In this document: piece after piece, positions 8,736 to 55,287 of the stretch
How the letters are laid out: every line of letters begins with the position of its first letter
How positions within the stretch are numbered: position 1 is the first letter of the stretch
Source: Candidatus Brockarchaeota archaeon
GTDB taxonomy: Archaea > Thermoproteota > EX4484-205 > JAAOZO01
Assembly: GCA_017601145.1 (NCBI GenBank)
Contig: JAFNIV010000006.1
Coordinates: forward strand, 479-64,478
DNA length: 64,000 nt
Direction: 5' to 3'
Notes under the pieces: generated by a model
The model's database searches: none
The model's input: only the letters and a program-made list of their open reading frames with translations
What the model was told of the DNA's origin: nothing
Translations under genes and position numbers: made by a program

Positions 8736-8808
8736 TGACATGTTTTCCTTACATTACTTTGTATTAAAAATAAAAAAATATATAAGAAAAACTTTCCAAC
8801 TAAGTAAG

Positions 8809-9966: not shown

Positions 9967-10937
9967 GGTTTAACTTCTGGAGGTTCAACATTAACTAGAG
10001 GCTTTAAGTATGCAATTGCTTGCTCAACCCCAGACTTCCTACTGAAGCACGGATCCTCATGTTCTACACTGAGAACATAGTTATAGCCAATTTCAAGTAG
10101 TGCTGTTATTACTTTTCTCCAAGGTACATCACCCCACCCAATCGTTCTGAATCTAACTGCTCTTGCTATTTGGTTCCAAGGGCCAGTTATTAGTACTCCC
10201 GTTCTTGAAGCACTATGTTTTACTACTTCAACATCTTTCGCATGGACATGATAAATTCTCTCGTTCAGTTCATAGATGAATTGAACTGGATCCATCTGCT
10301 GCCAAACTAGATGAGAAGGATCATAGTTAAACCCTAAAGCTTTATGATTGTCAGCAACTTTTAGTAGTGTTCTTGCAGTATCTAGGTTATAGTTTAACTC
10401 TTGTGGATGTGTTTCAAACGCGATTTTTATTCCATGATCCTTCGCATAGTCTAAGATTGGAAGCCACTTCTCTTTAAATAAGTCTAAGTAGCTTTCCCAA
10501 ACTTTTTGATTTCCTGGAGGATAACCGTACCACTTACCCCACTCTGGAACTCCAGTGAAAGAATTAACGACAGGAACTTCTAGAGCAGCAGCAGCTTCTA
10601 TTGTCTTCTTTAACCTTTCAATACCATATCTTGATTTTTCTTCTGGAGTACCCTTAAACCACTCGTCTGTTGAAGGATCATGAGGCCCTAGTATAAGCTG
10701 CCCTTCTAGATGATTACTTAATGCAGAAATTATAAGGTTATACTTCTCTATAACCCTTCTATACTCAGAAGCTCCACCATTTATGATTTTTTCTATGTCA
10801 ATGTGGTTGCTTCCTTTCCATGCCGAAATCTCAACTGCTTGATAGCCAATAGAAGAAACGTATTCGAGCGTTTTCTCCAATGGCTGGTCGTTGTATAATG
10901 CTAAGAATATGCCTACTTTCATTTCTTCTTTCACCAC
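9957..10937 (-). CDS. Sugar phosphate isomerase/epimerase (xylose isomerase-like TIM barrel)
   Basis: 326 aa. Alternating beta/alpha pattern with conserved E/H/D metal-ligand contexts (FETHPQE, HVHAKD, SVEHED). Confidence 0.75.
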   Translation of the reverse strand: MVKEEMKVGIFLALYNDQPLEKTLEYVSSIGYQAVEISAWKGSNHIDIEKIINGGASEYRRVIEKYNLIISALSNHLEGQLILGPHDPSTDEWFKGTPEEKSRYGIERLKKTIEAAAALEVPVVNSFTGVPEWGKWYGYPPGNQKVWESYLDLFKEKWLPILDYAKDHGIKIAFETHPQELNYNLDTARTLLKVADNHKALGFNYDPSHLVWQQMDPVQFIYELNERIYHVHAKDVEVVKHSASRTGVLITGPWNQIARAVRFRTIGWGDVPWRKVITALLEIGYNYVLSVEHEDPCFSRKSGVEQAIAYLKPLVNVEPPEVKPWW

Positions 10938-11169
10938 ATATTAGTAATGCTCTTGAAAATATAAGCTTTGCTCATTTTGAAGATGACTGAAAAATTTTAA
11001 TTAAGACAGATAACCAATAAACTTTAAATGTAAGATAAAGAAGAAGCCAAGTTACTTTCAGTAAGCTTTTAATCTTTTCATAGTTTCTGGCAAAACAAAG
11101 CTATACTATAGCCATTTGAGAATTTAATTAAGCATTTACCAAGATTCTATATTTTTACTTATCCATCAG

Positions 11170-12144
11170 TTAACTTAAGAATTTATTGGAACTCAAAGTT
11201 TGTTTAATAGTAGAAGCAGCAGTCTCTGGTTTAGTTGTTATTATTGTTGCTCCAAATCCAAGTTCATAACCAGCATATATATTAGTTCTTGGAATGACTT
11301 CCATATGCCAATGAAAATTACTAAAGCTAGAAGGAGCTATGTGAAAATAGTAATTGTAACTTACATTACCAAGAATCTTCTTCATAGTAAATATAAGCTT
11401 ACTAAAAACATTAAAAAGCTTAAGCATTTCTTCGCTATCTTTAGTGATATCTACAACTTTATTTCTTGAAGTAATCCAAAATTCAAATGGGGATATTGGA
11501 GCAAATGGAACAAATGCAATAAAATCATCTTCAAAGATAACTCTTTCCTGTACTCTTGCTTCATTTATTAGCAAGTTCATTGCCTCAGGTTTTTCTGAAA
11601 ATATCTTCATCTCTCTTTCTATATTTGGTGGTATGAGTTCGCTTCCTATTATTTGTGTGTGCGCGTGAGACACTGATGCTCCAGCTTCTTTCCCGTAATT
11701 TCGAAATATTGAAACATATTTTACTTTTTTATTTTCTTCTATTTTTCTTTTTATAGAGGTCAACGCTTCTATGTAGCTCTTTATTTCGTTTTCACCATAT
11801 TCGTCTATGTCCTTATTGTGGCTTCTAGTTTCTACTATAAGGTAGTGGTAACCATAAGGGTAATTTGGGCTATCTGATTGTGTATCAAATGCAGGATAAA
11901 GGTTCTCAAACACTCTTGAGTTCCACTCGCTGGAATACCAGATTTCTTCTCCAGTTTCTACCTCAATATTATTTTCTTTTATTTTAGTTATTAGTTCAGC
12001 TTTTGGAGTCATCTTCTCATTTCCTGGACAGAAAGGACAGAGAGTTTTTTGCTCTATCACTTCGCTAAAGTAATGGGGTCTTTTACCTCTAGCCTCTGAA
12101 ACTATACACATTCTTCCAGTAAACCAATCTTTTCTAATTTCCAA
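11170..12144 (-). CDS. galT: Galactose-1-phosphate uridylyltransferase (HIT superfamily)
   Basis: N-terminal CPFCPGNE zinc site and the HAHTQII (HxHxQ) active-site motif. 324 aa. Confidence 0.8.
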   Translation of the reverse strand: MEIRKDWFTGRMCIVSEARGKRPHYFSEVIEQKTLCPFCPGNEKMTPKAELITKIKENNIEVETGEEIWYSSEWNSRVFENLYPAFDTQSDSPNYPYGYHYLIVETRSHNKDIDEYGENEIKSYIEALTSIKRKIEENKKVKYVSIFRNYGKEAGASVSHAHTQIIGSELIPPNIEREMKIFSEKPEAMNLLINEARVQERVIFEDDFIAFVPFAPISPFEFWITSRNKVVDITKDSEEMLKLFNVFSKLIFTMKKILGNVSYNYYFHIAPSSFSNFHWHMEVIPRTNIYAGYELGFGATIITTKPETAASTIKQTLSSNKFLS

Positions 12145-12246
12145 TTTACTTTGCTTCCAGTAAAAATATGGGTTATTAAATTTTTTAGTGACAGTGAAAC
12201 TTCTTTTAGTAAAAGATTAAAAATTATTTAGAGAATATAGGAAGCC

Positions 12247-13182
12247 ATGAAATTAGTTAAAAGTTTAGGAGTATTTAGGAGGCCTATCTCAACTTACTCT
12301 ATCGTAGCAATAGACAAAAAAGAAGGCCTAATGGGAGTAGCCGTTCAGTCACATTGGTTTTCAGTTGGTTCAGTAGTACCCTGGGTAGAAGCTGGAGTTG
12401 GAGTAGTAGCAACACAATCTATAGCTGAAATAAGTTATGGAGTTCTAGGTTTGCTTTTGATGAAAAATGGAAAAACTCCAGAACAAACTCTTAAAGCACT
12501 AACTGCTGTAGATCCAAATTCTGAAGTTAGACAAGTTGCTATGTTAAGTGCTGATGGAAAGATAGCAACGTTCACTGGAAAAAATTGTATACCTGAAGCA
12601 GGACATATAACAGGAGAAAACTTTAGCGTACAAGCTAATTTAATGACGAGCAAAGAAGTTTGGCCAGCTATGGCTTCTGCATTCAGTAAAACAAATGGAA
12701 ACCTAGTAGAAAAGATGATCGCTTCCTTAGAAGCAGCAGAAACTGCAGGTGGAGATATAAGAGGAAGGCAATCTGCAGCAATTGTAGTAGTAAGAACGAA
12801 AGCAAGTAACGAACCATGGAAAGATAAAGTACTTGACTTAAGAGTAGAAGACCATCCAAATCCAGTCTTTGAATTAAAAAGACTTGTAAGAATTCATAAT
12901 GCATATGAGCATGCGAACAGAGGAGATGAATTTATGGCAGTTGGAAACATAAGTGGGGCTATGAGAGAATACGAATATGCAGCGAAGGAAGCACCTGAAA
13001 TAGATGAGCTTAAATTTTGGCAAGCAATAGCAATGCTAAACCATGGGATGGTTAGAGAAGCAAGAGACATACTAAAAGACATCTTTAAAAGAAATGAGGG
13101 CTGGAAAAAGGTGTTGAAGTCATTACCAAAAGTAGGATTTTTACTAACAGATGAAAAGACACTTAATTTAGTACTTGAATAA
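12247..13182 (+). CDS. DUF1028-family (Ntn-hydrolase fold) protein
   Basis: TYSIVAIDKKEGLMGVAVQSHWFSVGSVVPWVEAGVGVVATQS is the characteristic DUF1028 N-terminus. Confidence 0.7.
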   Translation: MKLVKSLGVFRRPISTYSIVAIDKKEGLMGVAVQSHWFSVGSVVPWVEAGVGVVATQSIAEISYGVLGLLLMKNGKTPEQTLKALTAVDPNSEVRQVAMLSADGKIATFTGKNCIPEAGHITGENFSVQANLMTSKEVWPAMASAFSKTNGNLVEKMIASLEAAETAGGDIRGRQSAAIVVVRTKASNEPWKDKVLDLRVEDHPNPVFELKRLVRIHNAYEHANRGDEFMAVGNISGAMREYEYAAKEAPEIDELKFWQAIAMLNHGMVREARDILKDIFKRNEGWKKVLKSLPKVGFLLTDEKTLNLVLE

Positions 13183-13342
13183 AAATTATATCACTACTTT
13201 ATAGAAAAAACTGTTTGTAGAAAAGAAGGACCAAGTTTAGAAACAATCAACTAAAACTTTTTAGTAATTAGTTTTAGGCATACTGAAGAATTTTAAAAAA
13301 ATTTAAAAACATTTGAAACATATTTAACTAGGGGAATAAAGG

Positions 13343-15520
13343 TTGGTAACGTTAGAAGAAATTGATGAAATAGTTTCTAAGATGACTTTGGAAGAAAAGG
13401 CGAGAATTGTTGTAGGAGTTGGTATACCTGGAATGTTTGGTAATCCTCGTTCTCGAGTTCCGGGAGCTGCAGGCGAGACTCATCCTATAGAAAGATTTGG
13501 AATACCTTCAACGGTCTTTGCGGATGGTCCTGCAGGTCTTAGAATAAATCCAAAAAGAGAAGGTGATGAAAAAACTTACCATGCAACAGCATTTCCTGTT
13601 GCAACTATGCTTGCATCAACATGGAATAGGGAGATACTAGAAGAAGTAGGAAGATGTATGGGAGAAGAAGTTAAAGAGTACGGAGTTGACATATTGCTTG
13701 CACCAGCAATGAACATTCATAGAAATCCTCTTTGTGGTAGAAATTTTGAGTACTACTCAGAAGACCCTTTTCTTACAGGTGAAATGGCTGCTGCTTTTGT
13801 AAAGGGGATTCAGTCAAAAGGAGTTGGTGCATGCCTAAAGCATTTTGCTGCCAACAACCAAGAAACAAATCGTACAAACATAGATACAATTGTTTCAGAA
13901 AGAGCACTAAAAGAAATATATCTTAAAGGTTTTGAAATAGCTATTAAAAAATCTAAACCATGGGCAATAATGAGTGCCTATAACAAGCTAAACGGGAAGT
14001 ATTGCTCACAAAACGAGTGGCTTCTAACAAAAGTCCTGAGGGAAGATTGGAGATTTGATGGTTTCGTTATGACAGATTGGTTTGCAGGAGATAATCCTGT
14101 AGAACAGATGAAAGCTGGAAACGATATGATAATGCCTGGAAAAGTACACCAAATTAATCGTAAGAGAAGGGACGAGATAGAGGAAATAATAACAGCTGTA
14201 AAAGAGGGAAAATTAGACGAAAAAATTCTTGACAGAAACGTGAAGAATATACTAAAAGTACTTGTTAATTCACCATCTTTTAATAAATATAATTATTCTA
14301 ACATACCAGATCTTAACATTCATGCAAAAGTTGCTTACGAAGCAGGAGCAGAAGGTGTCGTTCTCCTAAAGAACAATAAAGTGCTACCTATAAACAAAGA
14401 TACAAGAATTGCATTGTTTGGAACAGGCCAAATAGAAACTATTAAAGGTGGAACAGGAAGCGGCGACACACACCCAAGATATGTAGTTTCCATACTGGAA
14501 GGTATGAAAGAGAGAAATTTAAAGGTCGATGAAGAGCTAGCAAGTACTTATAGTAAGTATGTAAGTGAAATGAGAAAAAAGGAGTACAAAGAAAAGAAAG
14601 AAATGTTTGGCGAATCTAATTTAACTAGTAGACTTCCACAGGATTTCCTAAACGAAGATGAGATAGAAAAAATTGCAAAAAGAAATGACCTCGCAGTGGT
14701 TGTGATAAGCAGAATCTCGGGAGAAGGTTATGATAGAGAGCCAAAGAAAGGCGATTTTTATTTAAGTGATGATGAATCAAGTCTATTAAAAAAAGTATCA
14801 CAAATATTTCATAAGTATGAAAGAAAAGTTGTAGTCATATTAAATATAGGTTCGCCTATAGAAGTAACTAGCTGGAGAGACTTAGTAGACAGTATACTTC
14901 TAGCATGGCAAGCAGGACAAGAAACAGGAAGAATAGTTGCTGATGTTATTGTTGGAAAGATTAATCCATCAGGAAAGCTTCCAACAACATTTCCAAGAGA
15001 TTATTCTGAAATTCCATCCTGGAATTTCCCTGGAGAGCCAAAAGATAACCCACAAAAGGTTACGTATGATGAAGGAATATACGTAGGCTATAGGTATTAT
15101 GACACTTTTGGAGTAGAACCGGCTTATGAGTTTGGTTTTGGCCTATCTTATACAACTTTTGAATATAAAAACTTAGAAGTAAAGTTAGTGAATGAAAAAG
15201 TAAAAATTTCACTTGAAGTTTTAAACACTGGAGAATTTCCTGGAAAAGAAGTCGTTCAGGTTTACATTAGGGCACCAAAAGCAAAAATTGATAAGCCATT
15301 TCAAGAATTGAAAGAATTTTATAAGACTAGGCTCTTAAACCCAAACGAGAAAGAGAAAGTAGAAATTGAGATCGATCTAAAAGCGCTCGCAAGTTATAAT
15401 GGAGAAGTGTGGCTCGTTGAAAAAGGTGAATACGAAGTAAGAGTAGGATCTTCTTCAAGAGACATCAGGCTTATAAACAGATTTATTGTTGATGACGAAA
15501 AATGGAGATATACTTCTTAA
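13343..15520 (+). CDS. Glycoside hydrolase family 3 beta-glucosidase
   Basis: 725 aa. Motifs MTLEEK, KHFAANNQE and GFVMTDW (nucleophile Asp context), plus a C-terminal fibronectin-like domain. TTG start. Confidence 0.9.
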   Translation: MVTLEEIDEIVSKMTLEEKARIVVGVGIPGMFGNPRSRVPGAAGETHPIERFGIPSTVFADGPAGLRINPKREGDEKTYHATAFPVATMLASTWNREILEEVGRCMGEEVKEYGVDILLAPAMNIHRNPLCGRNFEYYSEDPFLTGEMAAAFVKGIQSKGVGACLKHFAANNQETNRTNIDTIVSERALKEIYLKGFEIAIKKSKPWAIMSAYNKLNGKYCSQNEWLLTKVLREDWRFDGFVMTDWFAGDNPVEQMKAGNDMIMPGKVHQINRKRRDEIEEIITAVKEGKLDEKILDRNVKNILKVLVNSPSFNKYNYSNIPDLNIHAKVAYEAGAEGVVLLKNNKVLPINKDTRIALFGTGQIETIKGGTGSGDTHPRYVVSILEGMKERNLKVDEELASTYSKYVSEMRKKEYKEKKEMFGESNLTSRLPQDFLNEDEIEKIAKRNDLAVVVISRISGEGYDREPKKGDFYLSDDESSLLKKVSQIFHKYERKVVVILNIGSPIEVTSWRDLVDSILLAWQAGQETGRIVADVIVGKINPSGKLPTTFPRDYSEIPSWNFPGEPKDNPQKVTYDEGIYVGYRYYDTFGVEPAYEFGFGLSYTTFEYKNLEVKLVNEKVKISLEVLNTGEFPGKEVVQVYIRAPKAKIDKPFQELKEFYKTRLLNPNEKEKVEIEIDLKALASYNGEVWLVEKGEYEVRVGSSSRDIRLINRFIVDDEKWRYTS

Positions 15521-40178: not shown

Positions 40179-41450
40179 CTATTTCAAATTGTAAATATCA
40201 ATCGCATTTTTATATAGTAAATTTTCTGCAACTTCAACAGCTAAATCTTTGCTAAAGTATTCTCTTTCCACTAAGTTAGTTAAGGTTATAGCTAGCTGAT
40301 ACTTTGTAAGCTGAGCTTTTCCATAGCTCCACTCTGGTACATAAGCATCACTAAAGAATGCACACCATTTATTCATTGGGAGCATCTGCAGTTTCTCAAC
40401 TGTTCTTTCTTCCATTATTGAAGGATAGTAAGAGTACCACCAAAATCCAGAAGAGAATACATTTGGGTAGTTTTTAGTTACAACATCGATTTCATGAGTT
40501 TGAACTTTACTTGCAGAAATTAAATCAAATTTAACTTCTTTGTACTTATGAAACAAAGAACAAAGTGAAAGTAACTGTTTTGGTTCATTAACAACAATAG
40601 CATAGTCAGGAGGGGAAGCTCCAACCACAGGCCTTTCCACACTTAACATCAACTGGAAAGTAACTTTACTATCTTTCAACAACTTAAGAAATTCGTTTAC
40701 AACGAAAGACAAGAGATAAACTTTTCCTTCAAAGCTAAGTTGCTTTCCTGACTTTACCTTACTTATGGTATCATCAACTTGTTTTTCCTCATAGTCTTCT
40801 AAAATTAGCTCACTTGGATTCAAGCTAATAGCTACAGAAGAAAGCTTGTTCTTAAACTTCTCAAAAACGATACTTATTCCTTCTCTTAAATCTTTTGAAT
40901 TTTTTACTTCTAACGAAAAGACCTCTTCAAGTTTTCTCAGATCTTCTAAAGAAATATCCTTAGAAAGTTTTTCTATTCTCAATGAGCCAGTAAAGAACGA
41001 GCTATCAAACGTTGTGTTTATATCTGAAAATTGAAGAGTAAGGAAAGCTTTCTTTATCTTTACTTTTTCTTTAAGAAAGTTAACTCCGTTTAAGTTTTTC
41101 TCAAAAGCTTGGAACCTTTCCTGAAGTTTATTAAAAGTATTTTCACTTAGTTCCTCATCGAAATTAAACAATTTTGAAAGAATTCTTTTTAATGCCCAAA
41201 AAGTAGAAGTGTTTTTTATATTTTTTAAGAAAGGTAAACTCCTTCTTACTCTTTCATCTGGATCTTTGATGCTTAGTATTTCTTGTGGCATTCCAGAAGT
41301 AACAAGTTCAGTAGCTATGTAGTGGTACAAAACTACTTCAGATAGATCATTTGATTTTAACTGAAGAGGATTTAGGTGGGTATGAATATCAACTATTGGA
41401 ATATCCTCCAATTCATTGCGAATTTTTTTAAAAGTATTTTCTTGACTCAT
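40179..41450 (-). CDS. Uronate isomerase-like / amidohydrolase-superfamily protein
   Basis: The N-terminal IPIVDIHTHLNP motif resembles the UxaC PI-x-D-x-H-x-HL motif. 423 aa. Confidence 0.55.
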   Translation of the reverse strand: MSQENTFKKIRNELEDIPIVDIHTHLNPLQLKSNDLSEVVLYHYIATELVTSGMPQEILSIKDPDERVRRSLPFLKNIKNTSTFWALKRILSKLFNFDEELSENTFNKLQERFQAFEKNLNGVNFLKEKVKIKKAFLTLQFSDINTTFDSSFFTGSLRIEKLSKDISLEDLRKLEEVFSLEVKNSKDLREGISIVFEKFKNKLSSVAISLNPSELILEDYEEKQVDDTISKVKSGKQLSFEGKVYLLSFVVNEFLKLLKDSKVTFQLMLSVERPVVGASPPDYAIVVNEPKQLLSLCSLFHKYKEVKFDLISASKVQTHEIDVVTKNYPNVFSSGFWWYSYYPSIMEERTVEKLQMLPMNKWCAFFSDAYVPEWSYGKAQLTKYQLAITLTNLVEREYFSKDLAVEVAENLLYKNAIDIYNLK

Positions 41451-41514
41451 AATAAGGAGAAGGATGCCTTAAAGCTTATAAAGTTTTTTTCTTGGTTAAG
41501 TTTAAGTAATAAAG

Positions 41515-42312
41515 ATGAACTGGAAAATTGCTGTTTGTATGAAAATAAGCGAAGAAAATTTAAAAATGCTTTCAGAAGTTGGAATAAAAAGTATAGAAAT
41601 TCCTGGATCCTTGCAACTTAATCCATTTAATGTTTCAAAAGAAGAACTAAAGAAGATAAAAGAACTTTCAAAAAGTTATGGTATAGAAATAGTGGCTTCT
41701 AATGTTATTTATCCACCAGATCTCTCTCATGTATCTAATGATGAATCATTAAGAAAGAAAAGTATAGAGTACACATACAAAATTGCAGAAGCAGCTTCAG
41801 AAGTCGATTGCCCAATCTTAGTTTGGGGTTCTGGAAGAGCTAGAAAAATATTACCAGAAGTATCTCCAGAAAAAGGCTATGAAAGAAACTTACAAGTTTT
41901 GAGAGAAGCAGCAAAAGCGGGAGAAGATTTTAATGTTACTTTTGCTATAGAGCCACTACCAAAAAACGAAACAAACTTCATAAATACAATAGAAGAAGCA
42001 TTAAAGATTGTTAAAGCTATCAACTCTGACTTTTTAAAAATAATAGCTGATGTAAGACATATGATTAGAGAAGAGCGTGATTTAGTAGAATCTTTAAGAT
42101 TAGCTAAAGAAGATATCGTTCATGTGCATCTGGCAGATAACAATAGTAAAGTTCCTGGAAGAGGAATAATTAACTTTACAAAACTTTTCGAAGTATTTAA
42201 AGAAATAGGATATAATAGAGCGATGTCGATAGAAGCGATGCTAGGAGAAAATCCAAAAGAAGAACTAAAATTTACATTGGAATTCTTAGAAAGAGTAACT
42301 TCCAACTTGTAA
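41515..42312 (+). CDS. Sugar phosphate isomerase/epimerase (xylose isomerase-like TIM barrel)
   Basis: 265 aa. FAIEPLP, HVHLADNN and SIEAM contexts typical of the family. Confidence 0.75.
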   Translation: MNWKIAVCMKISEENLKMLSEVGIKSIEIPGSLQLNPFNVSKEELKKIKELSKSYGIEIVASNVIYPPDLSHVSNDESLRKKSIEYTYKIAEAASEVDCPILVWGSGRARKILPEVSPEKGYERNLQVLREAAKAGEDFNVTFAIEPLPKNETNFINTIEEALKIVKAINSDFLKIIADVRHMIREERDLVESLRLAKEDIVHVHLADNNSKVPGRGIINFTKLFEVFKEIGYNRAMSIEAMLGENPKEELKFTLEFLERVTSNL

Positions 42313-42314
42313 GT

Positions 42315-43187
42315 TTATTTTATTCTTGATATTACTTCTAACAAGCCTTGCATCGTAACGTAAGATGCAACATAAGCACCAGAACTAAATTCTTTTCCTC
42401 CAGGCAATTTTATTTGCGCTTCTTCGAGATCCTTTGTCATTCTCCAATGAGTTTCTAATGATATGTAGCCGGAGTAACTAACTTCTTTTAAAGCTCTTAA
42501 ATTTTCTTCTATTTTTGCCTGACCTTTTCCTATTTTTAGGAATCTTACCTTAGAATTTTCTCTTACTCCATCTTTTAAATGTACATGAGCAATCATTCCT
42601 CTTACATGGTTGAAACCAACAGGATAAGGGTTCTCTTGCTCTTCCTCGTCCATAAGATCGTTTCCCGGATCCCAAAGTGCTCTAACAGTTTTTGTGTTTA
42701 ATGAATTGATGAAATCAGCTAGCATTCTTCCATTTCCAACAAAAGTAGAAGGTTCATTTTCCACCACTATTGTAGTACTATAATCATCTGCCAACTCAAT
42801 TATTTTTTCAAATTTTTTTATAATTTTTTCTTTGTAATCTTCGTACTTTCCCTTTTTCCAGAATGTGAATGATCTAACTAACTTTGTGTCAAGATAACTT
42901 GCTAACTCTAATGCATCCTTAAATATAGCAATATGTTTCTCATATTCTTCTCTTGAGTCTACATCACATTTAAACGTCGGTGCTGCAATAGCAGAAACTT
43001 TTAAGTTGTTTTCTTCAAGGAATTTCTTTAAAGTAACTTTTTCTTCTAGAATTTCTGGAAATCCTTTGTTTAAAATTGTCCTTATTTCTATTGCTTCTAC
43101 GTTAAAATTTTTTGCAAACTCTTCTATTTCCTCTAAATTTTGAGAGACTTCATCAGTTATAAAAGAAAGCTTAAAGGCATAGTTCAT
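42315..43187 (-). CDS. Sugar phosphate isomerase/epimerase (xylose isomerase-like TIM barrel)
   Basis: 290 aa. VVENEP, HVHLKDG and SLETHW contexts. Confidence 0.75.
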   Translation of the reverse strand: MNYAFKLSFITDEVSQNLEEIEEFAKNFNVEAIEIRTILNKGFPEILEEKVTLKKFLEENNLKVSAIAAPTFKCDVDSREEYEKHIAIFKDALELASYLDTKLVRSFTFWKKGKYEDYKEKIIKKFEKIIELADDYSTTIVVENEPSTFVGNGRMLADFINSLNTKTVRALWDPGNDLMDEEEQENPYPVGFNHVRGMIAHVHLKDGVRENSKVRFLKIGKGQAKIEENLRALKEVSYSGYISLETHWRMTKDLEEAQIKLPGGKEFSSGAYVASYVTMQGLLEVISRIK

Positions 43188-43201
43188 TCTTTAAAGCACC
43201 A

Positions 43202-44248
43202 TTACTCCACAAGCGGAAAACTTACTTTACTTCCTGTTTTGTGAGCTTTATAAATTGCAAGAACAATTTCTAATGCCTTTCTCCCTTCTTCTCCAGTTAC
43301 ATAAGGTGTCTTGTCTTCTACTATTGATCTTAAGAAATCTTCAATGACTCCATCGTGCCCTACTGAAGGAGTTAGAGTCTCTTCCTTTTCTTTAACTTCA
43401 TCTATTACCTTTGATTTACCTTCCTCTTCCCATTGCTTTACAATCTTTAAGTCGCTTCCAACTATAACAGATTTTTTACTTCCATAAATTCCAAGCCAGT
43501 TTTCCTGTGGTCTCAAAGCAACACTTCCTAGAATCGTTCCAAGAGCACCATTCTTGAACTTCAATGTTGCAACTGCTAGGTCTTCTACTTCTATGTTATG
43601 AGTTCTTGTGTCATAGATTGCGTAAAGATAGTCAACTGGCCCCATTATCCATTGCAATAGGTCAATTGTATGAATTGATTGGTTAATTAACGCACCTCCT
43701 CCTTCAGTACTCCACTTTCCACGCCAAGACCTTGCTGTTTCATCAGCATAATAGTATGAGGAGTCTTCACGGTACCATTTTACAACGGCTTCCCCATAAA
43801 TTGGAATTCCAAACTTCCCATTTTCGAACTCTTCTTTTATTTTTCTAGTATCAGGAGTAAAACGATACTGAAAAACTATTTCAAGTTTAACTCCATTTTT
43901 TTTACAAGCTCTAATCATTTCATCAGCTTGTTTTAAAGAAATTGCCATTGGCTTTTCACAAAGTACATGTTTCTTGTATTCTGCTGCTTTTGTTGTCATT
44001 TCAGCATGTAAATAGTGTGGAGTACATATGCTCACTGCATCGATTTCTGGATCTTGTAATAGTTGTTCATAGTCAGAATAAATTTTAACTCCCGAAAGAT
44101 TGAATCTTTCCGCTAGCGCTTTTGCTTTTTCAGTTTTTTTATCACAAAGTGCTACAACGTTAGCCATTCCAGACTTTAAGTAACCAGAAACATGACTTGG
44201 GGCAATTATCCCACAACCAATTATTCCGACGTTAACTTTTTTCTTCAT
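43202..44248 (-). CDS. Gfo/Idh/MocA-family oxidoreductase
   Basis: VGIIGCGIIAPSH Rossmann segment and a CEKPMA motif. 348 aa. It lies 14 nt upstream of the TIM-barrel gene. Confidence 0.85.
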   Translation of the reverse strand: MKKKVNVGIIGCGIIAPSHVSGYLKSGMANVVALCDKKTEKAKALAERFNLSGVKIYSDYEQLLQDPEIDAVSICTPHYLHAEMTTKAAEYKKHVLCEKPMAISLKQADEMIRACKKNGVKLEIVFQYRFTPDTRKIKEEFENGKFGIPIYGEAVVKWYREDSSYYYADETARSWRGKWSTEGGGALINQSIHTIDLLQWIMGPVDYLYAIYDTRTHNIEVEDLAVATLKFKNGALGTILGSVALRPQENWLGIYGSKKSVIVGSDLKIVKQWEEEGKSKVIDEVKEKEETLTPSVGHDGVIEDFLRSIVEDKTPYVTGEEGRKALEIVLAIYKAHKTGSKVSFPLVE

Positions 44249-46257: not shown

Positions 46258-46492
46258 TTTAGTTTTTAGATACGATTAGTAACAACTAATATTTAATTCT
46301 TTAAAAACGACTCTTAACTTAATACTACTATCTTTATAGAAACAGAAACTTAAGGATTTTATCGTCTCTTTAGTTCTTTTAAAAATGTTAAAATTACATC
46401 GTAACTATGCAATTTTAAACAATTTTGATCTTGAGACGATAGTTTTTTACGTTGAAAAATTTTAATATTCTTTTGCTAACGTAGAAGTAAAG

Positions 46493-49400
46493 TTGAAGGG
46501 CAAAAGAAAAGCAATTGCACTTGTTCCAGCGGCAGGAATAGGAGCGAGAATGACTCCAGAATGGAATATAAACAACATAGAAAAAGAATATTTTCCAAAA
46601 CCTGTTATAAAAGAATTTGTAACTAAAAAAAGTTTACTTGAATTAGTAGTAGGAAACTTAAGGAAGTCAGGACTATTTGATGAAATTTATATAAGGGTTG
46701 GAATGAAGAGCTTGTTAAGAGATGAAGCTAGCAAGCCTAGTATAAAGCAAGAAGCAATAAAAAAACTAGTAAAGTTTATCGAAGAGAAAAAACTTGCAAA
46801 GATTTATTTTAACAACTTAGATGAAAGAGACGATGGAACTGGCTCAACTATTCTTTCTGAAGAAATAAAAGAGAAGGTGGGAAAGGACCTTAGCATAGAG
46901 GACATACTAATAATTTCTAGTGATCTTCCAGCAATAAGACCAGAGACAATTAGAAAAATACTTCAAGTCCACAAAGTGCAAAAGAATGATATAACATTAG
47001 TTTCAACCATTGAGAAAGATATATTCGGTCATGGGCGAATTGTAAGGTACCCTGTTATTTTAAAGGGAATTAAAGAAAAATATAATGAACTTTCAAAAAA
47101 GTCAATGAGGTTAAATAAATTAATAAAAAAGGGAAAAATGAAGATAGTGAAAATAGCTGAAGGGAAAGAACCATATTGGACAAACTTCTTAGCACTGTTT
47201 GAAGATGAAATAAAAAAGTTAGAGAAAGGAGAAAAAGTTATAAAGTACCATCCAATAAGAGGAATTATAAAAGATGATAAGATAGAATTAGATAATAACT
47301 TAGTAAGAAAAATTGAGGTAAAGCTTAGCAATGGGAAATTTTTTGAGTTTGATGAAAGAAGTTTAGAATTCTTAGGGGTCGTTGAACAAGAACAAATAGG
47401 AGTTAATGATGAAGAAATAAATAGCAGAACAGTAAGACTAAATAGATTTGAGCACGAACTTTCTTCTTCGTACATAAATTCAATAAAAGAAAGAAATGTA
47501 CTTTGTATGATAGTTTCTAGAGATATTTTACTTAATACTATAAGAGATATTGATGCAAAAGATGAAACAGAAAAAAAGATTGTCTTAAGAAAACACAAGG
47601 AGGAATACTTCCTTCCAGAAGTGGCGAATGAAGCTGTAAAGTTAGGAAAGAAAGTAGGAGTAGTGAAGATAAAAGAAAAAGAGGCAATTGGAATAGATAC
47701 TAGAACTGATTTAAGAATGCTTTCAACTCAGCTAAAAAGAAGAAAAGTTTTGATAAACAAGAACATTCTTAAAAAAATAAAGGAAGAGAAACTGATTAAA
47801 GCAAAAGAAGATGAACTACAGACGCTTGAGCAAGTTTTTGGAGTTAACATTTACCCTAACACGCGAATATTCTTCGATAATCATATTAGAACTTTCATTG
47901 AAAGTATTAAACTTCAACTTAAAAAAGAAGGTAGCACAAAGAGATTTTTTGAGAAGTATAGGGATACATTGAGAGAACAAAGGTATGAAGTGTTTGGGGT
48001 GAAAGAGAAAATTACATTTAGAGTTGGAGTTAACAGCTCATTTCTTGGAGTAGTTGCTTTAAGTGGGAATATTAACATAAAAAGTTTTTGCAAAATTGAA
48101 AACTGCTACTTAAAAAATGTAGAAGTTGGAGAAAACGTACACGTTAGCTCATCAATATTAGAAAGTTGCTTAGTAGAAGGAAGCTACGATAAAGTAATAG
48201 AAATAAAGAATAGAAAAGAAAAAGAACAAATTTTAGGAGAAGATATAAATGAAGAAATGGTAAGTCTCGAGGCTAAGCCAGTAAAAGTAAGTAAAGCAAT
48301 AGAAGAGTTAGAAAAAGGAAAGATAAAAGAATTGGAAAAAATCTATGGAGATAAAGAAGTTGCAAGTGAAAGAAAGGAAAAAATTCTAAAAACAATTAAG
48401 AAGTTCATAGAAATTTTTGGAGATGAAAAAGTAATAGTAGTAAGGATTCCAGGAAGGTTAAATCTAATGGGAAGACATATTGACCATAGAGGAGGGAGCG
48501 TTAACGTTGTTGCAATTCCAAGAGAAATAATTGCTGTAGTTTCAAAAAGAAGCGATGACGTAATAAATCTTTTCAATGTTGACCAACAGTACAAACATTA
48601 TTCCTTTTCAATAATGGAAGAATTACCTCCAACCAAAATAAAAGACCACGAATGGAGATCATGGACTCAAGATAGAATTAAAGGAAGAATAGTAGATTGG
48701 TACGATTATGCTAGAAGTATAGTGTTCTTTCAAAATATGTACAGATTTTCAGATGGTAACTTCATAAAGAAGATTAATGGAGCGAACATTGTTGTTTTTG
48801 GAGATATTCCTCAATCCGCTGGACTTTCATCTTCTTCTGCTTTAGTTGTTGCAGTAAATCTTGGGATTACAATATTAAATAAGTTGAGAATCTCAAAGAG
48901 GAGGTTTATAGAATGGTGTGGGATGGCAGAATGGATAGTTGGCACACGAGGTGGCCATGGAGACCATGCGGCGATAATGCTTTCGAAAAAAGGTAAAGTT
49001 GCAAATATAGCAAACATGCCTCTTAAGGTGAGTTATGTCAATTTTCCAAAAAACCTTTTAGTTGTTGTATGTGACTCACTAGTAAAAGCAAGAAAGTCAA
49101 GAGAAAGTAAGAGTAAATTTAATGAAAAAGTAGCAACATACGAAATAGCTTTACTCTTATTTAAGAAGAAATTTCCAGATTTTGAAGGAAAAGTAAAGAT
49201 GTTTAGAGACATTATTCCAGAAAACATAGGAGTAAAACTAGAAAACTACTATGAAATTTTGAAGGAAATTCCAGAATCTATGAATAGAAGCGAAGTAGTA
49301 AGCAACCTGAGCAAGAACAGCGAGTTCTTAAATACACTGTTCAAGGAACATGAAGAGCCAAAAGAAGGATACAAAGTAAGAGGAGTTATGTTGTTTGGGG

Positions 49401-49876
49401 TTTCTGAGATAGAACGTGCAAGAATAGCACCATTAATAATTAGTAAAGATCCTGTTAAGTTTGGAAATATGATGAATATTTCTCACAATGCAGATAGAGA
49501 ATATAAGTATATAAACAGAGAAAAAATAAGATGGAAAAATGACTGTAGCGAAGAATACCTTAACAACCTAGTAAGAAAGCTTAAGGAAAACCCAAATGAA
49601 GAAAGTTGTAAGTTGTATATGCAAAGTGGAGACTATGGTTGTGGAAATGAGAAAACAGATCTTATAGTAGATTTAGCCACTTCTGTGGAGGGAGTTCTTG
49701 GAGCTGAAATTGTTGGCGCAGGGTTAGGAGGAAGTGTAGCAATATTTTTAAAAAAAGAAGCATTAAGTAATTTAATGAGAAAACTTAAGGAAGAGTACTA
49801 TAAGGATGAATTACTAATGAAAAACTCTACTATAGCTTTTAAACCAATTGAAGGTGCAACTGTAATAAAGTTCTAA
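46493..49876 (+). CDS. 1127-aa fusion: GlmU/RmlA-like sugar-1-phosphate nucleotidyltransferase, an LbH-like segment, and a galactokinase-like GHMP sugar-1-kinase
   Basis: N-terminus: ALVPAAGIGARM, DDGTGST, EYFLPEV, GIDTRTDL. C-terminus: RIPGRLNLMGRHIDHRGG (galactokinase signature-like) and GDIPQSAGLSSSSALVVA (GHMP ATP motif). Long Lys/Glu-rich inserts. TTG start. Confidence 0.8.
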   Translation: MKGKRKAIALVPAAGIGARMTPEWNINNIEKEYFPKPVIKEFVTKKSLLELVVGNLRKSGLFDEIYIRVGMKSLLRDEASKPSIKQEAIKKLVKFIEEKKLAKIYFNNLDERDDGTGSTILSEEIKEKVGKDLSIEDILIISSDLPAIRPETIRKILQVHKVQKNDITLVSTIEKDIFGHGRIVRYPVILKGIKEKYNELSKKSMRLNKLIKKGKMKIVKIAEGKEPYWTNFLALFEDEIKKLEKGEKVIKYHPIRGIIKDDKIELDNNLVRKIEVKLSNGKFFEFDERSLEFLGVVEQEQIGVNDEEINSRTVRLNRFEHELSSSYINSIKERNVLCMIVSRDILLNTIRDIDAKDETEKKIVLRKHKEEYFLPEVANEAVKLGKKVGVVKIKEKEAIGIDTRTDLRMLSTQLKRRKVLINKNILKKIKEEKLIKAKEDELQTLEQVFGVNIYPNTRIFFDNHIRTFIESIKLQLKKEGSTKRFFEKYRDTLREQRYEVFGVKEKITFRVGVNSSFLGVVALSGNINIKSFCKIENCYLKNVEVGENVHVSSSILESCLVEGSYDKVIEIKNRKEKEQILGEDINEEMVSLEAKPVKVSKAIEELEKGKIKELEKIYGDKEVASERKEKILKTIKKFIEIFGDEKVIVVRIPGRLNLMGRHIDHRGGSVNVVAIPREIIAVVSKRSDDVINLFNVDQQYKHYSFSIMEELPPTKIKDHEWRSWTQDRIKGRIVDWYDYARSIVFFQNMYRFSDGNFIKKINGANIVVFGDIPQSAGLSSSSALVVAVNLGITILNKLRISKRRFIEWCGMAEWIVGTRGGHGDHAAIMLSKKGKVANIANMPLKVSYVNFPKNLLVVVCDSLVKARKSRESKSKFNEKVATYEIALLLFKKKFPDFEGKVKMFRDIIPENIGVKLENYYEILKEIPESMNRSEVVSNLSKNSEFLNTLFKEHEEPKEGYKVRGVMLFGVSEIERARIAPLIISKDPVKFGNMMNISHNADREYKYINREKIRWKNDCSEEYLNNLVRKLKENPNEESCKLYMQSGDYGCGNEKTDLIVDLATSVEGVLGAEIVGAGLGGSVAIFLKKEALSNLMRKLKEEYYKDELLMKNSTIAFKPIEGATVIKF

Positions 49877-49943: not shown

Positions 49944-51392
49944 TTAGTTACTATGACAAACTTTTTGTGTCACTATTAGCGCAGTTGAAATTGCTCTCAA
50001 GAAACCATCAGAGGGCCGATTCTTTACTTCGTTGTTTAAGATTAAAGTTGAAGAACCTCCTCCATCTAAGTTAATAGCATTTTTACACCCAATTTCCTTC
50101 AATATTGTTATTAACTCGTCTAAAGTTGCTCCTACGCTATACCTCTCTTCTGGATTTAGCTTTGTTTGTCTATCGTCGTCTACAGTAATTAACAAGATTT
50201 TATCTTCAGAAGTTGCAAAAACACTTCTTGGAGCCCTTATGTTAAACTTAATTCTTGATGGTGGAATTCCTTCCTTAAATTCTTCCTCATACTTCACTTC
50301 CTTACCATCTTTTAGAAGTATTGGACCTGCTGAAAGTCCATGAACAACTCTTTCTCCTTCAAGTTTTTCTATACCGTAAACAATACTGCTTATCTTTGTT
50401 TCTTTTGTTTCACTTATAATTCTTCTTGCCAAATTTTTATCTTTTACTAAAATTATGAATCCATTCCTTGGAACTTCTACTTCTTTTTCTTCTGTGATTT
50501 CAACAAGATTTCTTCCTACAACGACAAACTTTATTCCATCTTCACTTAAATTTCTAGCATAACTTAATGTATATAAGGATACTTCGTTTTCAGAATTTAG
50601 TTTAACTTTTATTTCTGAACTGTTTTCTTTAAAACTAAATTTTGTTTTTCCAATTTTTATAGTTAAATCTAAAACTGATAACGTATCAAGATACACACCT
50701 TCTTCAGATAATAGGATTGTTCCTCTTCTAAAAATTGGTGGATTAATTATATGTTTGTCGATCATAATTAATCCAACAGGATCATTGAAAGCATCATACT
50801 TACTTATCTCTTCAGGAAAGTTTAAGAAGTAACCTCCATTTATTCCAGCTATAGCATTGTTCCTTTTCACCATTTCCATTAAATTTTCGTACCCACTACA
50901 TAAAGTAATCGGAAGTGTAGGCTCTACGATTTGTTCTTTTTCTTGACTTTCGCTAAAGTAAATCATTTTGTCTTTTAATTCTTTAAGTAGCGCATCTTCT
51001 TGTAGCATAGTATTCATTAACTTAAAATCATCTTTCTTATGATCGTAAACTAGTTTCTTTCCTTTAATGAATTTCTTTACTATTTCAATGCCATATAGAT
51101 CCTTACTTAGTATGATTCTGTGACTTCCTTCTTCAATAAAAGTATTCTTATCTTCTTTTGAGATAACGAGAACGTTATCTTTGCTTTCTAGTCCCCTAAT
51201 TCCAATTTTATCAGCTGTAGCTATTCTCCTAAGAGAGTGAGCAACTTGAATAAGTTCTTCCTTTTTCTCTGGAACTTTTGCTTGTAATGGCTTTATCTCG
51301 AGTCTTTTTAGTTCACTAAAGCTTATTTCAACTACATGTACCACTCTTTTTCCAAATTCACTTTCAAATGTTCTCCTTTTGTAGCTTACCAT
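49944..51392 (-). CDS. Phosphodiester glycosidase family protein (NAGPA/DUF2233-like)
   Basis: AGINGGYF and NLDGGGSSTL motifs in the C-terminal half. 482 aa. Confidence 0.65.
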   Translation of the reverse strand: MVSYKRRTFESEFGKRVVHVVEISFSELKRLEIKPLQAKVPEKKEELIQVAHSLRRIATADKIGIRGLESKDNVLVISKEDKNTFIEEGSHRIILSKDLYGIEIVKKFIKGKKLVYDHKKDDFKLMNTMLQEDALLKELKDKMIYFSESQEKEQIVEPTLPITLCSGYENLMEMVKRNNAIAGINGGYFLNFPEEISKYDAFNDPVGLIMIDKHIINPPIFRRGTILLSEEGVYLDTLSVLDLTIKIGKTKFSFKENSSEIKVKLNSENEVSLYTLSYARNLSEDGIKFVVVGRNLVEITEEKEVEVPRNGFIILVKDKNLARRIISETKETKISSIVYGIEKLEGERVVHGLSAGPILLKDGKEVKYEEEFKEGIPPSRIKFNIRAPRSVFATSEDKILLITVDDDRQTKLNPEERYSVGATLDELITILKEIGCKNAINLDGGGSSTLILNNEVKNRPSDGFLRAISTALIVTQKVCHSN

Positions 51393-53487: not shown

Positions 53488-55287
53488 ATGAAGACTAGGA
53501 AAAAATTAGAGGAGAAAAAAGTTTCTATTTCACCAGATGGAAAAGAGTTTCCATTACCATCAAAGGAAGATTATGAAAACGAAGTAAAAAAAGTAAGAGA
53601 ACTTGCAAAGAAGGCAAAAGATTTAGGGAATCAAGTTGTAGTTGTTCAAGGGCTTGGATTTGTTGGAGCTGTAATGGCGGCAATTGTAGCTCAGGCTGAA
53701 AAAAAGTTTGTAATTGGCTTACAGAGAGCTTCTAAACGTTCATACTGGAAGATTCCTTATATAAATCAGGGAATTTCTCCAATAGAGTCAGAGGATCCAA
53801 AGGTAAAAGAAATAATAAAGAATGGAATAGAGAAAGAGAAACTCTATGCTACTTATGTAGAGGAAGCCATCTCTCTTGGCGAAATAGTGATTAGCGATAT
53901 CCAGTGTGATGTAAAGAAGCTAAGGTTTGGGAACTCTAGGGTATTTACTGTAGAAATTGAGCCATTTATAGAAGCTTCAAAGGAAGTTGCTAGTTTAATA
54001 ACTCCAAGTTCACTTTACTTGATTGAAACTACTGTACCGCCAGGAACTTCAGAATACATAGTAAGACCGATTTTTGAAGAAGCATTTAAAAAGAGAATAG
54101 TAGACGAGCTAAGAAATCTAAAGAAGAAAAACTTAGATGAAGTAAGAGAATTAGTAAGAAACTCTGATTTCTTACGAGAAGTTGAAGAAGAAGTTGTTAG
54201 TTATGTTGAAAGCCCGATGAAAGAAAAAGAGAAAGAAATAGTGCTAAAGGCTTTTAGGAACCACAGACCAAGAATCGCTCATTCTTATGAAAGAGTAATG
54301 CCAGGAAGGGAATATGTTGATTCAGTAATAAACTTTCCAAGAGTATTTTCAGGAGTAGATGAAGTTTCAGCAACTATGGCTCAAAAATTCCTTTCTGAAG
54401 TTCTTACTGGACCGAATGCAAAACTTACGAGGCTAGCAACACCTACAGACTCTGAATTTGCGAAGTGCGCAGAAAATACCTATAGAGCTTCGATAATAGC
54501 CTTAGGAAGAGCCCTAGGCAGAATGGCGGAAATAATGAACGTTGACTTTTCTGAGGTTGTTGATGCTATAAAAATAAGACCAACACATCGTGACATAATG
54601 GTTCCAAGAACGCCTACAACGGGAGGCTATTGTTTACCAAAGGATCCTCTCTTTCTACTGTGGTCTTTGAAGAACATCCCAGAATTTAAGGAGAAGCTTA
54701 GTAAAGAAAATAAAGAAGCTTTGAGAAGGGTAATGAACTTAATTTCCTTAATAGTAGACATTAATGACACAGATGGAATACACGCAGTAGAGCTTGTCGA
54801 AAGAGAACTAAAGAAAATTGGAAAAAAACTAAAAGTAAGTAAAGTTTTAGTTGCAGGCGCTTCCTATAGAGAAGATGTTGCAGATACTAGGTATGCATCC
54901 TATGAAACAATAGTTAGGTACTTAAGGGAGAAAGGAGCTGAAGTTTCTGTCACTGATCCTTACGTAAAGTCACTTCCAGAACTAGAATATCAAGAAGAAG
55001 ACAAGTATTCATTAGCAAAATTCTTCGCGAGACAAAGAGAACTTAAGTTTTTGAAGGTAAATGGTTCATTTGAAGAAGCTGCCAAGGGTGTTGACGCAAT
55101 AATATTTGCAGTTCCTCATGAGCCTTATAAGAAACTTACTCCAGAAAAAATTTGCAGTGCTACCGGAAAACCACCACAAGAAATCGTAGTTGTGGATTGT
55201 GGAACTTTTAACAAAGAACAAGCAATTAGTATGATTAGCTATGGACTAAACTTTGAAAAGATGTATCATGGGAATTTTAAAAAATAA
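53488..55287 (+). CDS. Nucleotide-sugar dehydrogenase (UDP-glucose/GDP-mannose dehydrogenase family) with internal insertions
   Basis: VVVVQGLGFVGAVMA NAD fold and the catalytic-Cys motif GGYCLPKDP. At 599 aa it is longer than I would expect for this family. Confidence 0.8.
   Translation: MKTRKKLEEKKVSISPDGKEFPLPSKEDYENEVKKVRELAKKAKDLGNQVVVVQGLGFVGAVMAAIVAQAEKKFVIGLQRASKRSYWKIPYINQGISPIESEDPKVKEIIKNGIEKEKLYATYVEEAISLGEIVISDIQCDVKKLRFGNSRVFTVEIEPFIEASKEVASLITPSSLYLIETTVPPGTSEYIVRPIFEEAFKKRIVDELRNLKKKNLDEVRELVRNSDFLREVEEEVVSYVESPMKEKEKEIVLKAFRNHRPRIAHSYERVMPGREYVDSVINFPRVFSGVDEVSATMAQKFLSEVLTGPNAKLTRLATPTDSEFAKCAENTYRASIIALGRALGRMAEIMNVDFSEVVDAIKIRPTHRDIMVPRTPTTGGYCLPKDPLFLLWSLKNIPEFKEKLSKENKEALRRVMNLISLIVDINDTDGIHAVELVERELKKIGKKLKVSKVLVAGASYREDVADTRYASYETIVRYLREKGAEVSVTDPYVKSLPELEYQEEDKYSLAKFFARQRELKFLKVNGSFEEAAKGVDAIIFAVPHEPYKKLTPEKICSATGKPPQEIVVVDCGTFNKEQAISMISYGLNFEKMYHGNFKK

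Follow-up and report, generated by a model that had tools for sequence, protein, structure and literature searches.

The window analysed here is a 64,000-nucleotide stretch of the genome of a Candidatus Brockarchaeota archaeon (assembly GCA_017601145.1, contig JAFNIV010000006.1, positions 479 to 64,478 of the forward strand). It contains one long plus-strand gene, in which a predicted nucleotidyltransferase of the GlmU type is followed, within a single polypeptide of 1127 residues, by a predicted sugar kinase of the GalK type. The product is probably a bifunctional salvage enzyme, which would convert a free sugar to a sugar-1-phosphate and then to a nucleoside diphosphate (NDP)-sugar, to be taken further by a neighbouring dehydrogenase. 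The whole protein was modelled with AlphaFold2 (AF2) from an alignment of 60 sequences, with a mean predicted local distance difference test (pLDDT) value of 85 and a predicted template modelling (pTM) score of 0.56. The gene and its parts are:

46462..46472, plus strand: AT-rich element ttttaatattc, resembling a TATA box, ~25 nt before the TTG start codon (direct sequence reading)
46493..49876, plus strand: whole gene, nucleotidyltransferase-kinase fusion (open frame; full-length orthologues with 72-80% identity in other assemblies)
46493..47047, plus strand: nucleotidyltransferase core part 1, residues 1-185 (hhalign against E. coli GlmU residues 8-170: 96%, E-value 2e-9)
47048..47368, plus strand: inserted alpha/beta domain of the archaeal forms, residues 186-292, 107 residues in length (gap in the hhalign alignment; AF2)
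47369..47752, plus strand: nucleotidyltransferase core part 2, residues 293-420 (the hhalign alignment with bacterial members spans query residues 4-418)
47753..48007, plus strand: helical region of archaeal forms only, residues 421-505 (AF2 helices at 423-501, pLDDT 69-87)
48008..48172, plus strand: short hexapeptide-repeat stretch, possible left-handed beta-helix, residues 506-560 (sub-threshold matches)
48173..48286, plus strand: low-confidence linker, residues 561-598 (pLDDT <50 at 557-585)
48287..48427, plus strand: helical N-terminal extension of the kinase, residues 599-645 (AF2 helices at 599-642, pLDDT 86-93)
48428..49873, plus strand: GalK-type GHMP anomeric sugar kinase, residues 646-1127 (three Pfam domains, hhalign against GalK, Foldseek)

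The frame is open over all 1127 codons, from the TTG to a stop at 49874-49876, and the motifs listed in the first-pass annotation were all recovered in it: ALVPAAGIGARM (residues 9-20), DDGTGST (113-119), EYFLPEV (371-377), GIDTRTDL (400-407), VGENVHVSSSILESCLVEGS (545-564), RIPGRLNLMGRHIDHRGG (651-668) and GDIPQSAGLSSSSALVVA (770-787). The public gene call (P0002) comprises 1108 residues and starts at Met20 (46550), so that the GxGxR loop of the nucleotidyltransferase is cut off. The N-terminus MKSKRKVIALIPAAGIGARM is kept by the orthologues with 72-80% identity and, because the TTG start is itself conserved in the 80%-identical orthologue (locus L001), the TTG at 46493 is a better start call than Met20. 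The same orthologue has a similar element, tttttatattc, at an equal distance from its TTG start, and the position of the TATA-like box suggests a leaderless or short-leader mRNA with a non-AUG start.

Colinear orthologues of 1129-1130 residues were identified on contigs of independent assemblies, i.e. two NCBI metagenome-assembled genomes (labelled Nitrososphaera sp. and Thaumarchaeota archaeon) and one Logan run. All segments of the gene are under purifying selection: in a comparison with the 80% orthologue (Nei-Gojobori method), the ratio of nonsynonymous to synonymous substitution rates (dN/dS) was 0.07-0.25 in every one of them, with 0.10 for the transferase core, 0.16 for the insert 186-292, 0.13 for residues 421-505, 0.17 for 506-560, 0.25 (the maximum in the gene) for 561-598 and 0.07 for 599-645. 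The strand opposite to the gene contains many stops. Two antisense open reading frames (ORFs) lie inside it on the minus strand, at 47029..47598 (189 codons) and 48343..48594 (83 codons), and are probably by-products of skewed composition.

The two halves occur as separate genes in a sister genus, which could speak for the long ORF being an artefact, i.e. two genes merged by mis-assembly or a frameshift. This has next to no probability, since the colinear fusion recurs, at 80% identity, in three or more independent assemblies, fused forms of 1300 residues are present in two further genera, and the ORF contains neither a stop nor a change of frame. Furthermore, the split genomes have the kinase gene first and the transferase gene second, the reverse of the fusion, and therefore neither read-through nor a frameshift could yield the ORF of the window. 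The joining of two genes, named in the first-pass annotation as a possible pitfall, was consequently rejected on the strength of the orthologous fusions elsewhere and the reversed order of the split genes.

The N-terminal half (residues 1-420), as judged from profile alignments and conserved positions, appears to be a very divergent GlmU-type nucleotidyltransferase that keeps its catalytic residues. An hhalign comparison of the archaeal with the bacterial transferase halves aligned query residues 4-418 with residues 15-270 of the bacterial protein P0014 (97%, E-value 1e-10), and the bacterial halves, which exceed the Pfam cut-off, were in turn aligned with residues 5-239 of E. coli GlmU (99.85%, E-value 1.5e-30). 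Their matches to GlmU, with 3e-25 for structures and ~1e-42 for NCBIfam models, are much stronger than those to enzymes of the RmlA or ManC type. These alignments, together with the conserved residues, place the half in the sugar-1-phosphate nucleotidyltransferase fold (PF00483/PF12804 superfamily). Core part 1 contains GIGAR (15-19), Lys36 (in PKP), DDGTGST and Asp144 (in SSDLP), and core part 2 contains Glu298 (in GVVEQ), Asn335, Glu371-Tyr373 (in EEYFLPE) and Asp402 (in GID). Asp144, Glu298 and Asn335 correspond to D105, E154 and N169 of GlmU, respectively, and Asp402 replaces Asn227; further GlmU-type counterparts are G15-x-G17-x-R19-M20, Lys36, G115-T-G117 and Glu371-x-Tyr373. Among 60 family members, G15, G17, R19, G115-G117, D144, G181 and R182 are invariant or nearly so, and N335, E371 and Y373 are conserved.

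GlmU is the closest characterised relative of this half, and its GxGxRM...K, GTG, D105, E154, N169 and EYY elements all have counterparts. Unlike GlmU, the window protein has no long acetyltransferase beta-helix, it contains large inserts, and it carries Asp402 in place of Asn227. The GlmU equivalog model TIGR01173 was matched at 41.2 bits (cut-off 366.85), and in two pieces only. A trifunctional, GlmU-like enzyme with an acetyltransferase was also considered and rejected; the hexapeptide stretch is only ~55 residues long and sub-threshold.

The same divergence has to be weighed against another explanation, according to which only the kinase is catalytic and the N-terminal half is a degenerate scaffold, oligomerisation or regulatory module, comparable to the epsilon and gamma subunits of eIF2B, so that the product would be the sugar-1-phosphate only. 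With the single sequence, the Pfam family NTP_transf_3 scored 15.2 bits, under its cut-off of 27; the GlmU NCBIfam models match piecemeal (including residues 366-418); a phmmer search with the archaeal half recovered archaeal relatives only and missed the bacterial halves; the fold contains large insertions; and the weak beta-helix match is of the eIF2B-epsilon type. Nevertheless, a dead transferase is improbable, as the catalytic signature is invariant or nearly invariant in the 60 members, archaeal ones included, the GlmU alignment spans the whole fold, and dN/dS of the core is 0.10. Moreover, the split genomes keep the transferase gene between the kinase and dehydrogenase genes, which fits a pathway step.

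The C-terminal half (residues 646-1127, with helices at 599-645 before it) is more readily classified: GalKase_gal_bdg (1.4e-14), GHMP_kinases_N (7.7e-11) and GHMP_kinases_C (6.3e-06) all exceed their Pfam cut-offs. The N-terminal nucleotidyltransferase and C-terminal GHMP kinase proposed earlier are thus both upheld, the kinase by Pfam and the transferase, whose own Pfam match is sub-threshold, by profile comparison. A profile of 81 family kinases was aligned with the whole of E. coli GalK (99.95%, E-value 6e-38), and the modelled fold matches GALK2, Gal1p and GALK1 (Foldseek). The best solved match is human GALK2 (2a2c), with 2.6e-28 by sequence and, by Foldseek, 1.5e-29 and a template modelling (TM) score of 0.82 on the target. 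The helices at 599-645 are common to the bacterial fused and stand-alone members, and the stand-alone kinases align from about residues 590-614 of the query.

The key residues of the kinase are Arg655, Arg661-His662-Asp664-His665, the P-loop at 770-787, Arg819, Asp824 and GAGLGGS (1075-1081). According to hhalign, Arg28, His35, Asp37 and the catalytic Asp174 of GalK are conserved as Arg655, His662, Asp664 and Asp824, respectively, while Glu34, Tyr38 and Tyr223 are replaced by Arg661, His665 and Phe876, and the Asn of the GalK motif CNCGIMDQ by Arg819. These replacements are invariant or near-invariant in the 60 family members. With its three domains, its catalytic Asp and Arg residues and its P-loop (GLSSSSA), the protein falls into the GalK-like branch of the GHMP kinases, and the GAGLGG motif is kept as well; the loss of catalytic residues from one half, another objection foreseen in the first-pass annotation, was found in neither half.

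Several of these results would fit an ordinary galactokinase joined to a UDP-galactose or UDP-hexose pyrophosphorylase (UDP, uridine diphosphate), providing a GalT-independent route from galactose to UDP-galactose: the Pfam galactose-binding signature is matched, the galactokinase equivalog TIGR00131 is the top NCBIfam match, and the hhalign alignment spans the whole of E. coli GalK. However, this alternative is very improbable. TIGR00131 reaches only 128.4 bits, far under its cut-off of 226.65; the sugar-binding signature of galactokinases, GEHxDY (GEHTDY) with Tyr223, gives way to GRHIDH with Phe876; and the transferase is GlmU-like rather than GalU- or USP-like. The genome also has GalT-family genes and a separate, true galK (358 residues, G000:C26:3657-4715, TIGR00131 269.9 bits). 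Because of this galK and of the failed TIGR00131 test, the kinase half is best regarded, on the residues compared, as a paralogous anomeric kinase of the GalK type, whose pocket differs, and not as the galactokinase of the organism. A third, weaker GalK-like gene is located at G000:C22:58125-59219 (81 bits, open frame of 426 residues).

Between and within the two catalytic modules lie the segments that distinguish the archaeal protein. Long charged inserts had been noted in the first-pass annotation, and they are indeed real relative to the ~800-residue bacterial members, because residues 186-292 are unaligned to these members (hhalign) and fewer than 30% of the bacterial rows in the alignment have counterparts of residues 420-587. 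The first insert, for which both disorder and a new domain had been considered earlier, is predicted to be a compact folded domain and not a disordered spacer. It occupies the hairpin that connects strand GRIV with strand VVEQ, with pLDDT >90 in the full model and, when modelled alone from ten archaeal sequences, a pLDDT of 93.3 and a pTM of 0.83. Foldseek searches with this insert gave no significant match in PDB (best E-value 0.35, TM score ≤0.28) or BFVD (best E-value 0.05), and no Pfam family covers residues 186-292. The insert is therefore an orphan domain relative to PDB and BFVD only, which does not in itself establish a new fold. A few residues beyond this position, the bacterial members have an insert of another kind, helical for the most part.

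The second insert continues into the hexapeptide stretch, which had been described as left-handed-beta-helix-like. Hexapeptide-like residues are present at 506-560, but the matches are sub-threshold (LbH_EIF2B E-value 0.007, Hexapep E-value 0.23) and the modelled strands have a pLDDT of ~50-56, so a left-handed beta-helix is weakly supported here. The adjoining residues 557-585 are probably flexible, as judged from the model. As regards charge, lysine and glutamate make up 23% of the whole protein, 33% of residues 186-292, 45% of the pre-kinase helices and 18% of the kinase, and the genome has a G+C content of ~31%. The Lys/Glu richness is thus partly a property of the whole protein; the charge of the inserts is real, and gives no indication of disorder.

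An exhaustive search for relatives of the protein yielded 287 representative clusters at E-value ≤1e-30, in which kinases that stand alone (500-560 residues) are mixed with fusions (775-1330 residues). The fused relatives from bacteria number more than 100 and measure 775-1030 residues (E-values 1e-65 to 1e-120), and a word-indexed search named fused members in Planctomycetota, Armatimonadota, Latescibacterota, Victivallaceae and Firmicutes. The window protein belongs to this family of NTP-transferase::GalK-like fusions (NTP, nucleoside triphosphate), as both halves are homologous and the motifs GRH(I/V)DHxGG and GTRGGxGDHAA, which form invariant alignment columns, are present. The family is widespread and mostly bacterial, and the notion of an archaeal analogue does not hold if it is meant as an archaeal-specific invention. 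Among 301 sampled genomes of the window's phylum, it was found in 13, all of them in the window's own order. The two other genomes of the window's genus have the fusion, two more genera of its family have fused forms of 1300-1340 residues, and in 7 genomes of a sister genus the halves are two separate, adjacent genes.

An example of the split form is the minus-strand operon at L017 (G012:C1) 7820-13380, which encodes a kinase of 523, a transferase of 777 and a dehydrogenase of 531 residues, with intergenic gaps of 48 and 11 nt; its transferase carries the beta-helix-like stretch too. In a FastTree phylogeny of 264 kinase domains, the label fused or alone requires at least 24 changes. One clade (support 96) unites the kinases of the window's genus, 7 of the 8 archaeal fusions of 1300 residues and the split kinases, and within this archaeal clade, which lies inside the family tree, the split forms are sister to the fused ones. 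The fusion P0012, of 1336 residues (L022 6355-12011), comes from another lineage; its transferase half is of the archaeal type, but its kinase groups with stand-alone kinases in another part of the tree, a pattern suggestive of domains having been shuffled among lineages. Since the two halves are fused in archaea and in more than 100 bacterial proteins and are encoded by adjacent genes when split, they would appear to be functionally coupled.

The bacterial fusions (e.g. P0014, P0022 and P0111) share with the window protein the homology of both halves, the domain order, a kinase identity of 35-41% and the motifs GRH(I/V)DH(R/Q/K)GG and GTRGGxGDHAA. They differ from it in that the window protein is 230-350 residues longer, contains the insert 186-292 and the segment 421-598, and has a much more divergent transferase. 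In databases they are annotated as 'NTP transferase domain-containing protein', 'galactokinase family protein' or 'N-acetylgalactosamine kinase'. Human GALK2 (2a2c/2a2d), the best solved relative of the kinase, has Phe at the position of GalK Tyr223, as does the window protein (Phe876). GALK2, an N-acetylgalactosamine kinase, is only 24% identical, several signature residues differ (GEHIDY and GTEGGGMDQ against GRHIDH and GTRGGHGDH in the window protein), and it is not fused to a transferase.

Two known systems resemble the fusion in layout. The L-fucokinase/GDP-fucose pyrophosphorylase FKP (FKGP) of Bacteroides fragilis and plants, to which the first-pass annotation had likened the protein, also leads from a free sugar to the NDP-sugar in one polypeptide, and its structure consists of a Rossmann fold, a left-handed beta-helix, a five-helix linker and a GHMP kinase (PMC6468028). 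The domain order is indeed equal to that of FKP, although the beta-helix part of the likeness is weak. The likeness does not extend to homology: FKP has the kinase motifs GGWxDTPP and TGGGWQDQ and the transferase motif HxGGxSxRxP(x)5GK (PMC6468028), whereas the window protein has the GalK- and GlmU-type motifs GRHIDHRGG, GTRGGHGDH and AAGIGARM. No match to fucokinase or FKP was found in Pfam at E-value ≤1, among the PDB sequence matches or in the top 50 Foldseek matches. The window protein is thus an analogue of FKP, unrelated to it beyond the superfamily level. The second system is zebrafish GKUP, a glucuronokinase and also a putative UDP-glucuronic acid pyrophosphorylase with an N-terminal nucleotidyltransferase (~260 residues) and a C-terminal GHMP sugar-1-kinase (PMC3938481). 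It shares the N-transferase/C-kinase salvage route to a UDP-sugar, but it is eukaryotic, has a glucuronokinase-type kinase and 619 residues, and lacks both inserts and beta-helix.

The surroundings of the gene were compared by tblastn among 15 archaeal loci, with Pfam/NCBIfam checks on three. The neighbouring genes of the window are:

40179..44248, mixed strands: conserved companion block, consisting of the following four genes
40179-41450, minus strand: UxaC-like protein (Pfam/NCBIfam; UxaC match with E-value ~1e-9 over ~110 residues)
41515-42312, plus strand: xylose-isomerase-like TIM barrel (Pfam/NCBIfam)
42315-43187, minus strand: xylose-isomerase-like TIM barrel (Pfam/NCBIfam)
43202-44248, minus strand: Gfo/Idh/MocA oxidoreductase (Pfam/NCBIfam)
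49944..51392, minus strand: NAGPA-family phosphodiester glycosidase (Pfam NAGPA 8.8e-29)
53488..55287, plus strand: NDP-sugar dehydrogenase of 599 residues (three Pfam UDPG_MGDP_dh domains)

The glycosidase (NAGPA), the lyxose/mannose isomerase (a Lyx_isomer cupin) and the NDP-sugar dehydrogenase mentioned in the first-pass annotation are all present, and YdjC and Lyx_isomer cupin genes are also seen among the neighbours in the compared loci. The closest NCBIfam equivalog of the dehydrogenase is the archaeal UDP-N-acetylmannosamine (UDP-ManNAc) dehydrogenase (2.7e-37, below cut-off). Homologues were found in 11 of the 15 archaeal loci. Each of the seven split genomes has the dehydrogenase gene immediately after that of the transferase, and the P0012 lineage has it 42 nt upstream of the fusion. 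With 599 residues (531-632 in relatives), the dehydrogenase is longer than the typical ~420 residues and scores 181 bits with TIGR03026, just under the cut-off of 189.8, from which it follows that it too carries large insertions.

Parts of the companion block recur next to the kinase/transferase/dehydrogenase operon of the split genomes: the UxaC-like gene, the Gfo/Idh/MocA gene and one TIM-barrel gene share 64-71% identity between the window and six of the seven, and the contig of the seventh ends too early. The UxaC-like protein (423 residues), with its faint match to UxaC (glucuronate isomerase), is 64-77% identical across two genera, is always found beside a pair made up of a Gfo/Idh/MocA and a TIM-barrel gene, and looks like a conserved enzyme without assigned function. 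G002, G003, G004 and the P0006 lineage have the NAGPA gene at or close to the locus and the split-form genus does not, i.e. this gene accompanies the fusion gene only in the window's family. In the locus of one relative, L018 (G004:C13) 12689-15049, a Gfo/Idh/MocA oxidoreductase and a DegT/DnrJ aminotransferase lie directly beside the fusion gene; this pair is reminiscent of WbpB and WbpE in the synthesis of UDP-2,3-diacetamido-uronate. Of the links drawn from gene context, the firmest is that with the NDP-sugar dehydrogenase and the UxaC-like/Gfo/Idh/MocA/TIM-barrel block. The galT placed elsewhere in the window by the first-pass annotation corresponds to a weak GalT-family match in ORF 11170..12144, but is not part of this link.

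Taken with two intact catalytic modules, which are either joined in one protein or specified by adjacent genes, with a nucleotide-sugar dehydrogenase after them, this context is the basis on which a pathway is proposed. We infer both activities, the nucleotide, the sugar and the link with the dehydrogenase from domains, residues and neighbourhood. The C-terminal GalK-type domain would use ATP to phosphorylate the anomeric hydroxyl of a free sugar, with Asp824 as the base, Arg655 beside O1 and the P-loop at 770-787. The N-terminal GlmU-type domain would then, with the participation of Arg19, Lys36, Asp144 and Asp402, join the sugar-1-phosphate to an NTP, probably UTP, so that the NDP-sugar is formed and pyrophosphate released. 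The choice of UTP is a guess, because no clear counterpart of Gln76, which reads uracil in GlmU, was seen in the transferase half. The NDP-sugar would most likely be oxidised to an NDP-uronic acid by the NDP-sugar 6-dehydrogenase encoded nearby. Sugar recycling for surface glycan synthesis, as proposed in the first-pass annotation, may be the purpose of such a route.

The salvage function is held to be likely, although several observations weigh against it. In addition to the sub-threshold NTP_transf_3 match and the missing Gln76 counterpart, the transferase signature deviates from that of GlmU (GIGAR in place of GKGTR, GID in place of GVN). In G002, the closest relative, no dehydrogenase was found within the 13 kb visible downstream. 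The genome has seven other, ordinary NTP_transferase genes, so the fusion enzyme would be an accessory route. The sampled bacterial contexts are mostly uninformative: in six bacterial loci, one downstream epimerase and one nearby dehydrogenase with Gfo fusions were seen, with no recurring partner. The literature searched yielded FKP, GKUP and reviews only; it contained no study of a GalK-type/GlmU-type fusion and no assay of any member, and nothing was found on 'AbGHMP' (PDB 9ulx).

The substrate of the salvage enzyme is not galactose. A sugar of the N-acetylhexosamine type is the leading, if weak, candidate; it is favoured because GALK2 is the best solved match, Phe876 is shared with it and the transferase is of the GlmU type, and also because of the UDP-ManNAc-dehydrogenase-like, NAGPA and YdjC neighbours. 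The pocket itself argues the other way, as it differs from those of both GalK and GALK2 (Glu replaced by Arg661, Tyr by His665, and Arg819 against Glu in GALK2), and these differences keep the assignment weak.

The same differences lead to a rather unlikely variant of the salvage function, namely the salvage of an acidic sugar (a hexuronate or N-acetylhexosaminuronate), whose C6 carboxylate would be bound by Arg661 and Arg819. Such an enzyme would yield the very NDP-uronate that arises de novo through the neighbouring dehydrogenase. This variant is a sub-case of the salvage reading, with a specified substrate. An invariant Arg661 stands in place of E. coli GalK Glu34, a residue which we take, from GalK structures, to bind the sugar O6. 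Arg819, His665 and His825 are family-specific, the UxaC-like gene and the NDP-sugar 6-dehydrogenase are conserved neighbours, and a characterised uronic-acid precedent of equal architecture exists in zebrafish GKUP (PMC3938481). On the other hand, the downstream dehydrogenase is more simply understood as the next step on a neutral NDP-sugar, and the UxaC match is weak. Extended to the family, the proposal would be that all its members are dedicated to the salvage of acidic (amino) sugars, N-acetylhexosaminuronic or hexuronic, with Arg661 and Arg819 replacing Glu of GalK and GALK2 to accept the C6 carboxylate, that the product is the NDP-uronate of the dehydrogenase, and that the archaeal insert is a new fold which gates or couples the active sites. 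In this full form the proposal is speculative and distinctly unlikely.

The general kind of enzyme, i.e. one polypeptide for the salvage of a sugar to its NDP-sugar, is already known from FKP and GKUP, and the combination of a GalK-type with a GlmU-type module constitutes a third, independent way to make a kinase/pyrophosphorylase enzyme. Enzymes of the FKP type are valued for nucleotide-sugar synthesis and metabolic glycan labelling. The family described here spans several bacterial phyla and one archaeal order. What is new, as far as the models indicate, is that the archaeal form adds a folded 107-residue insert and a helical/beta-helix-like spacer to this widespread family. The natural pair of fused and split forms and the conserved kinase-transferase-dehydrogenase operon point to a pathway and provide a clean experimental handle, and the identity of the sugar would close an annotation gap in the cell-surface sugar metabolism of these poorly known archaea.

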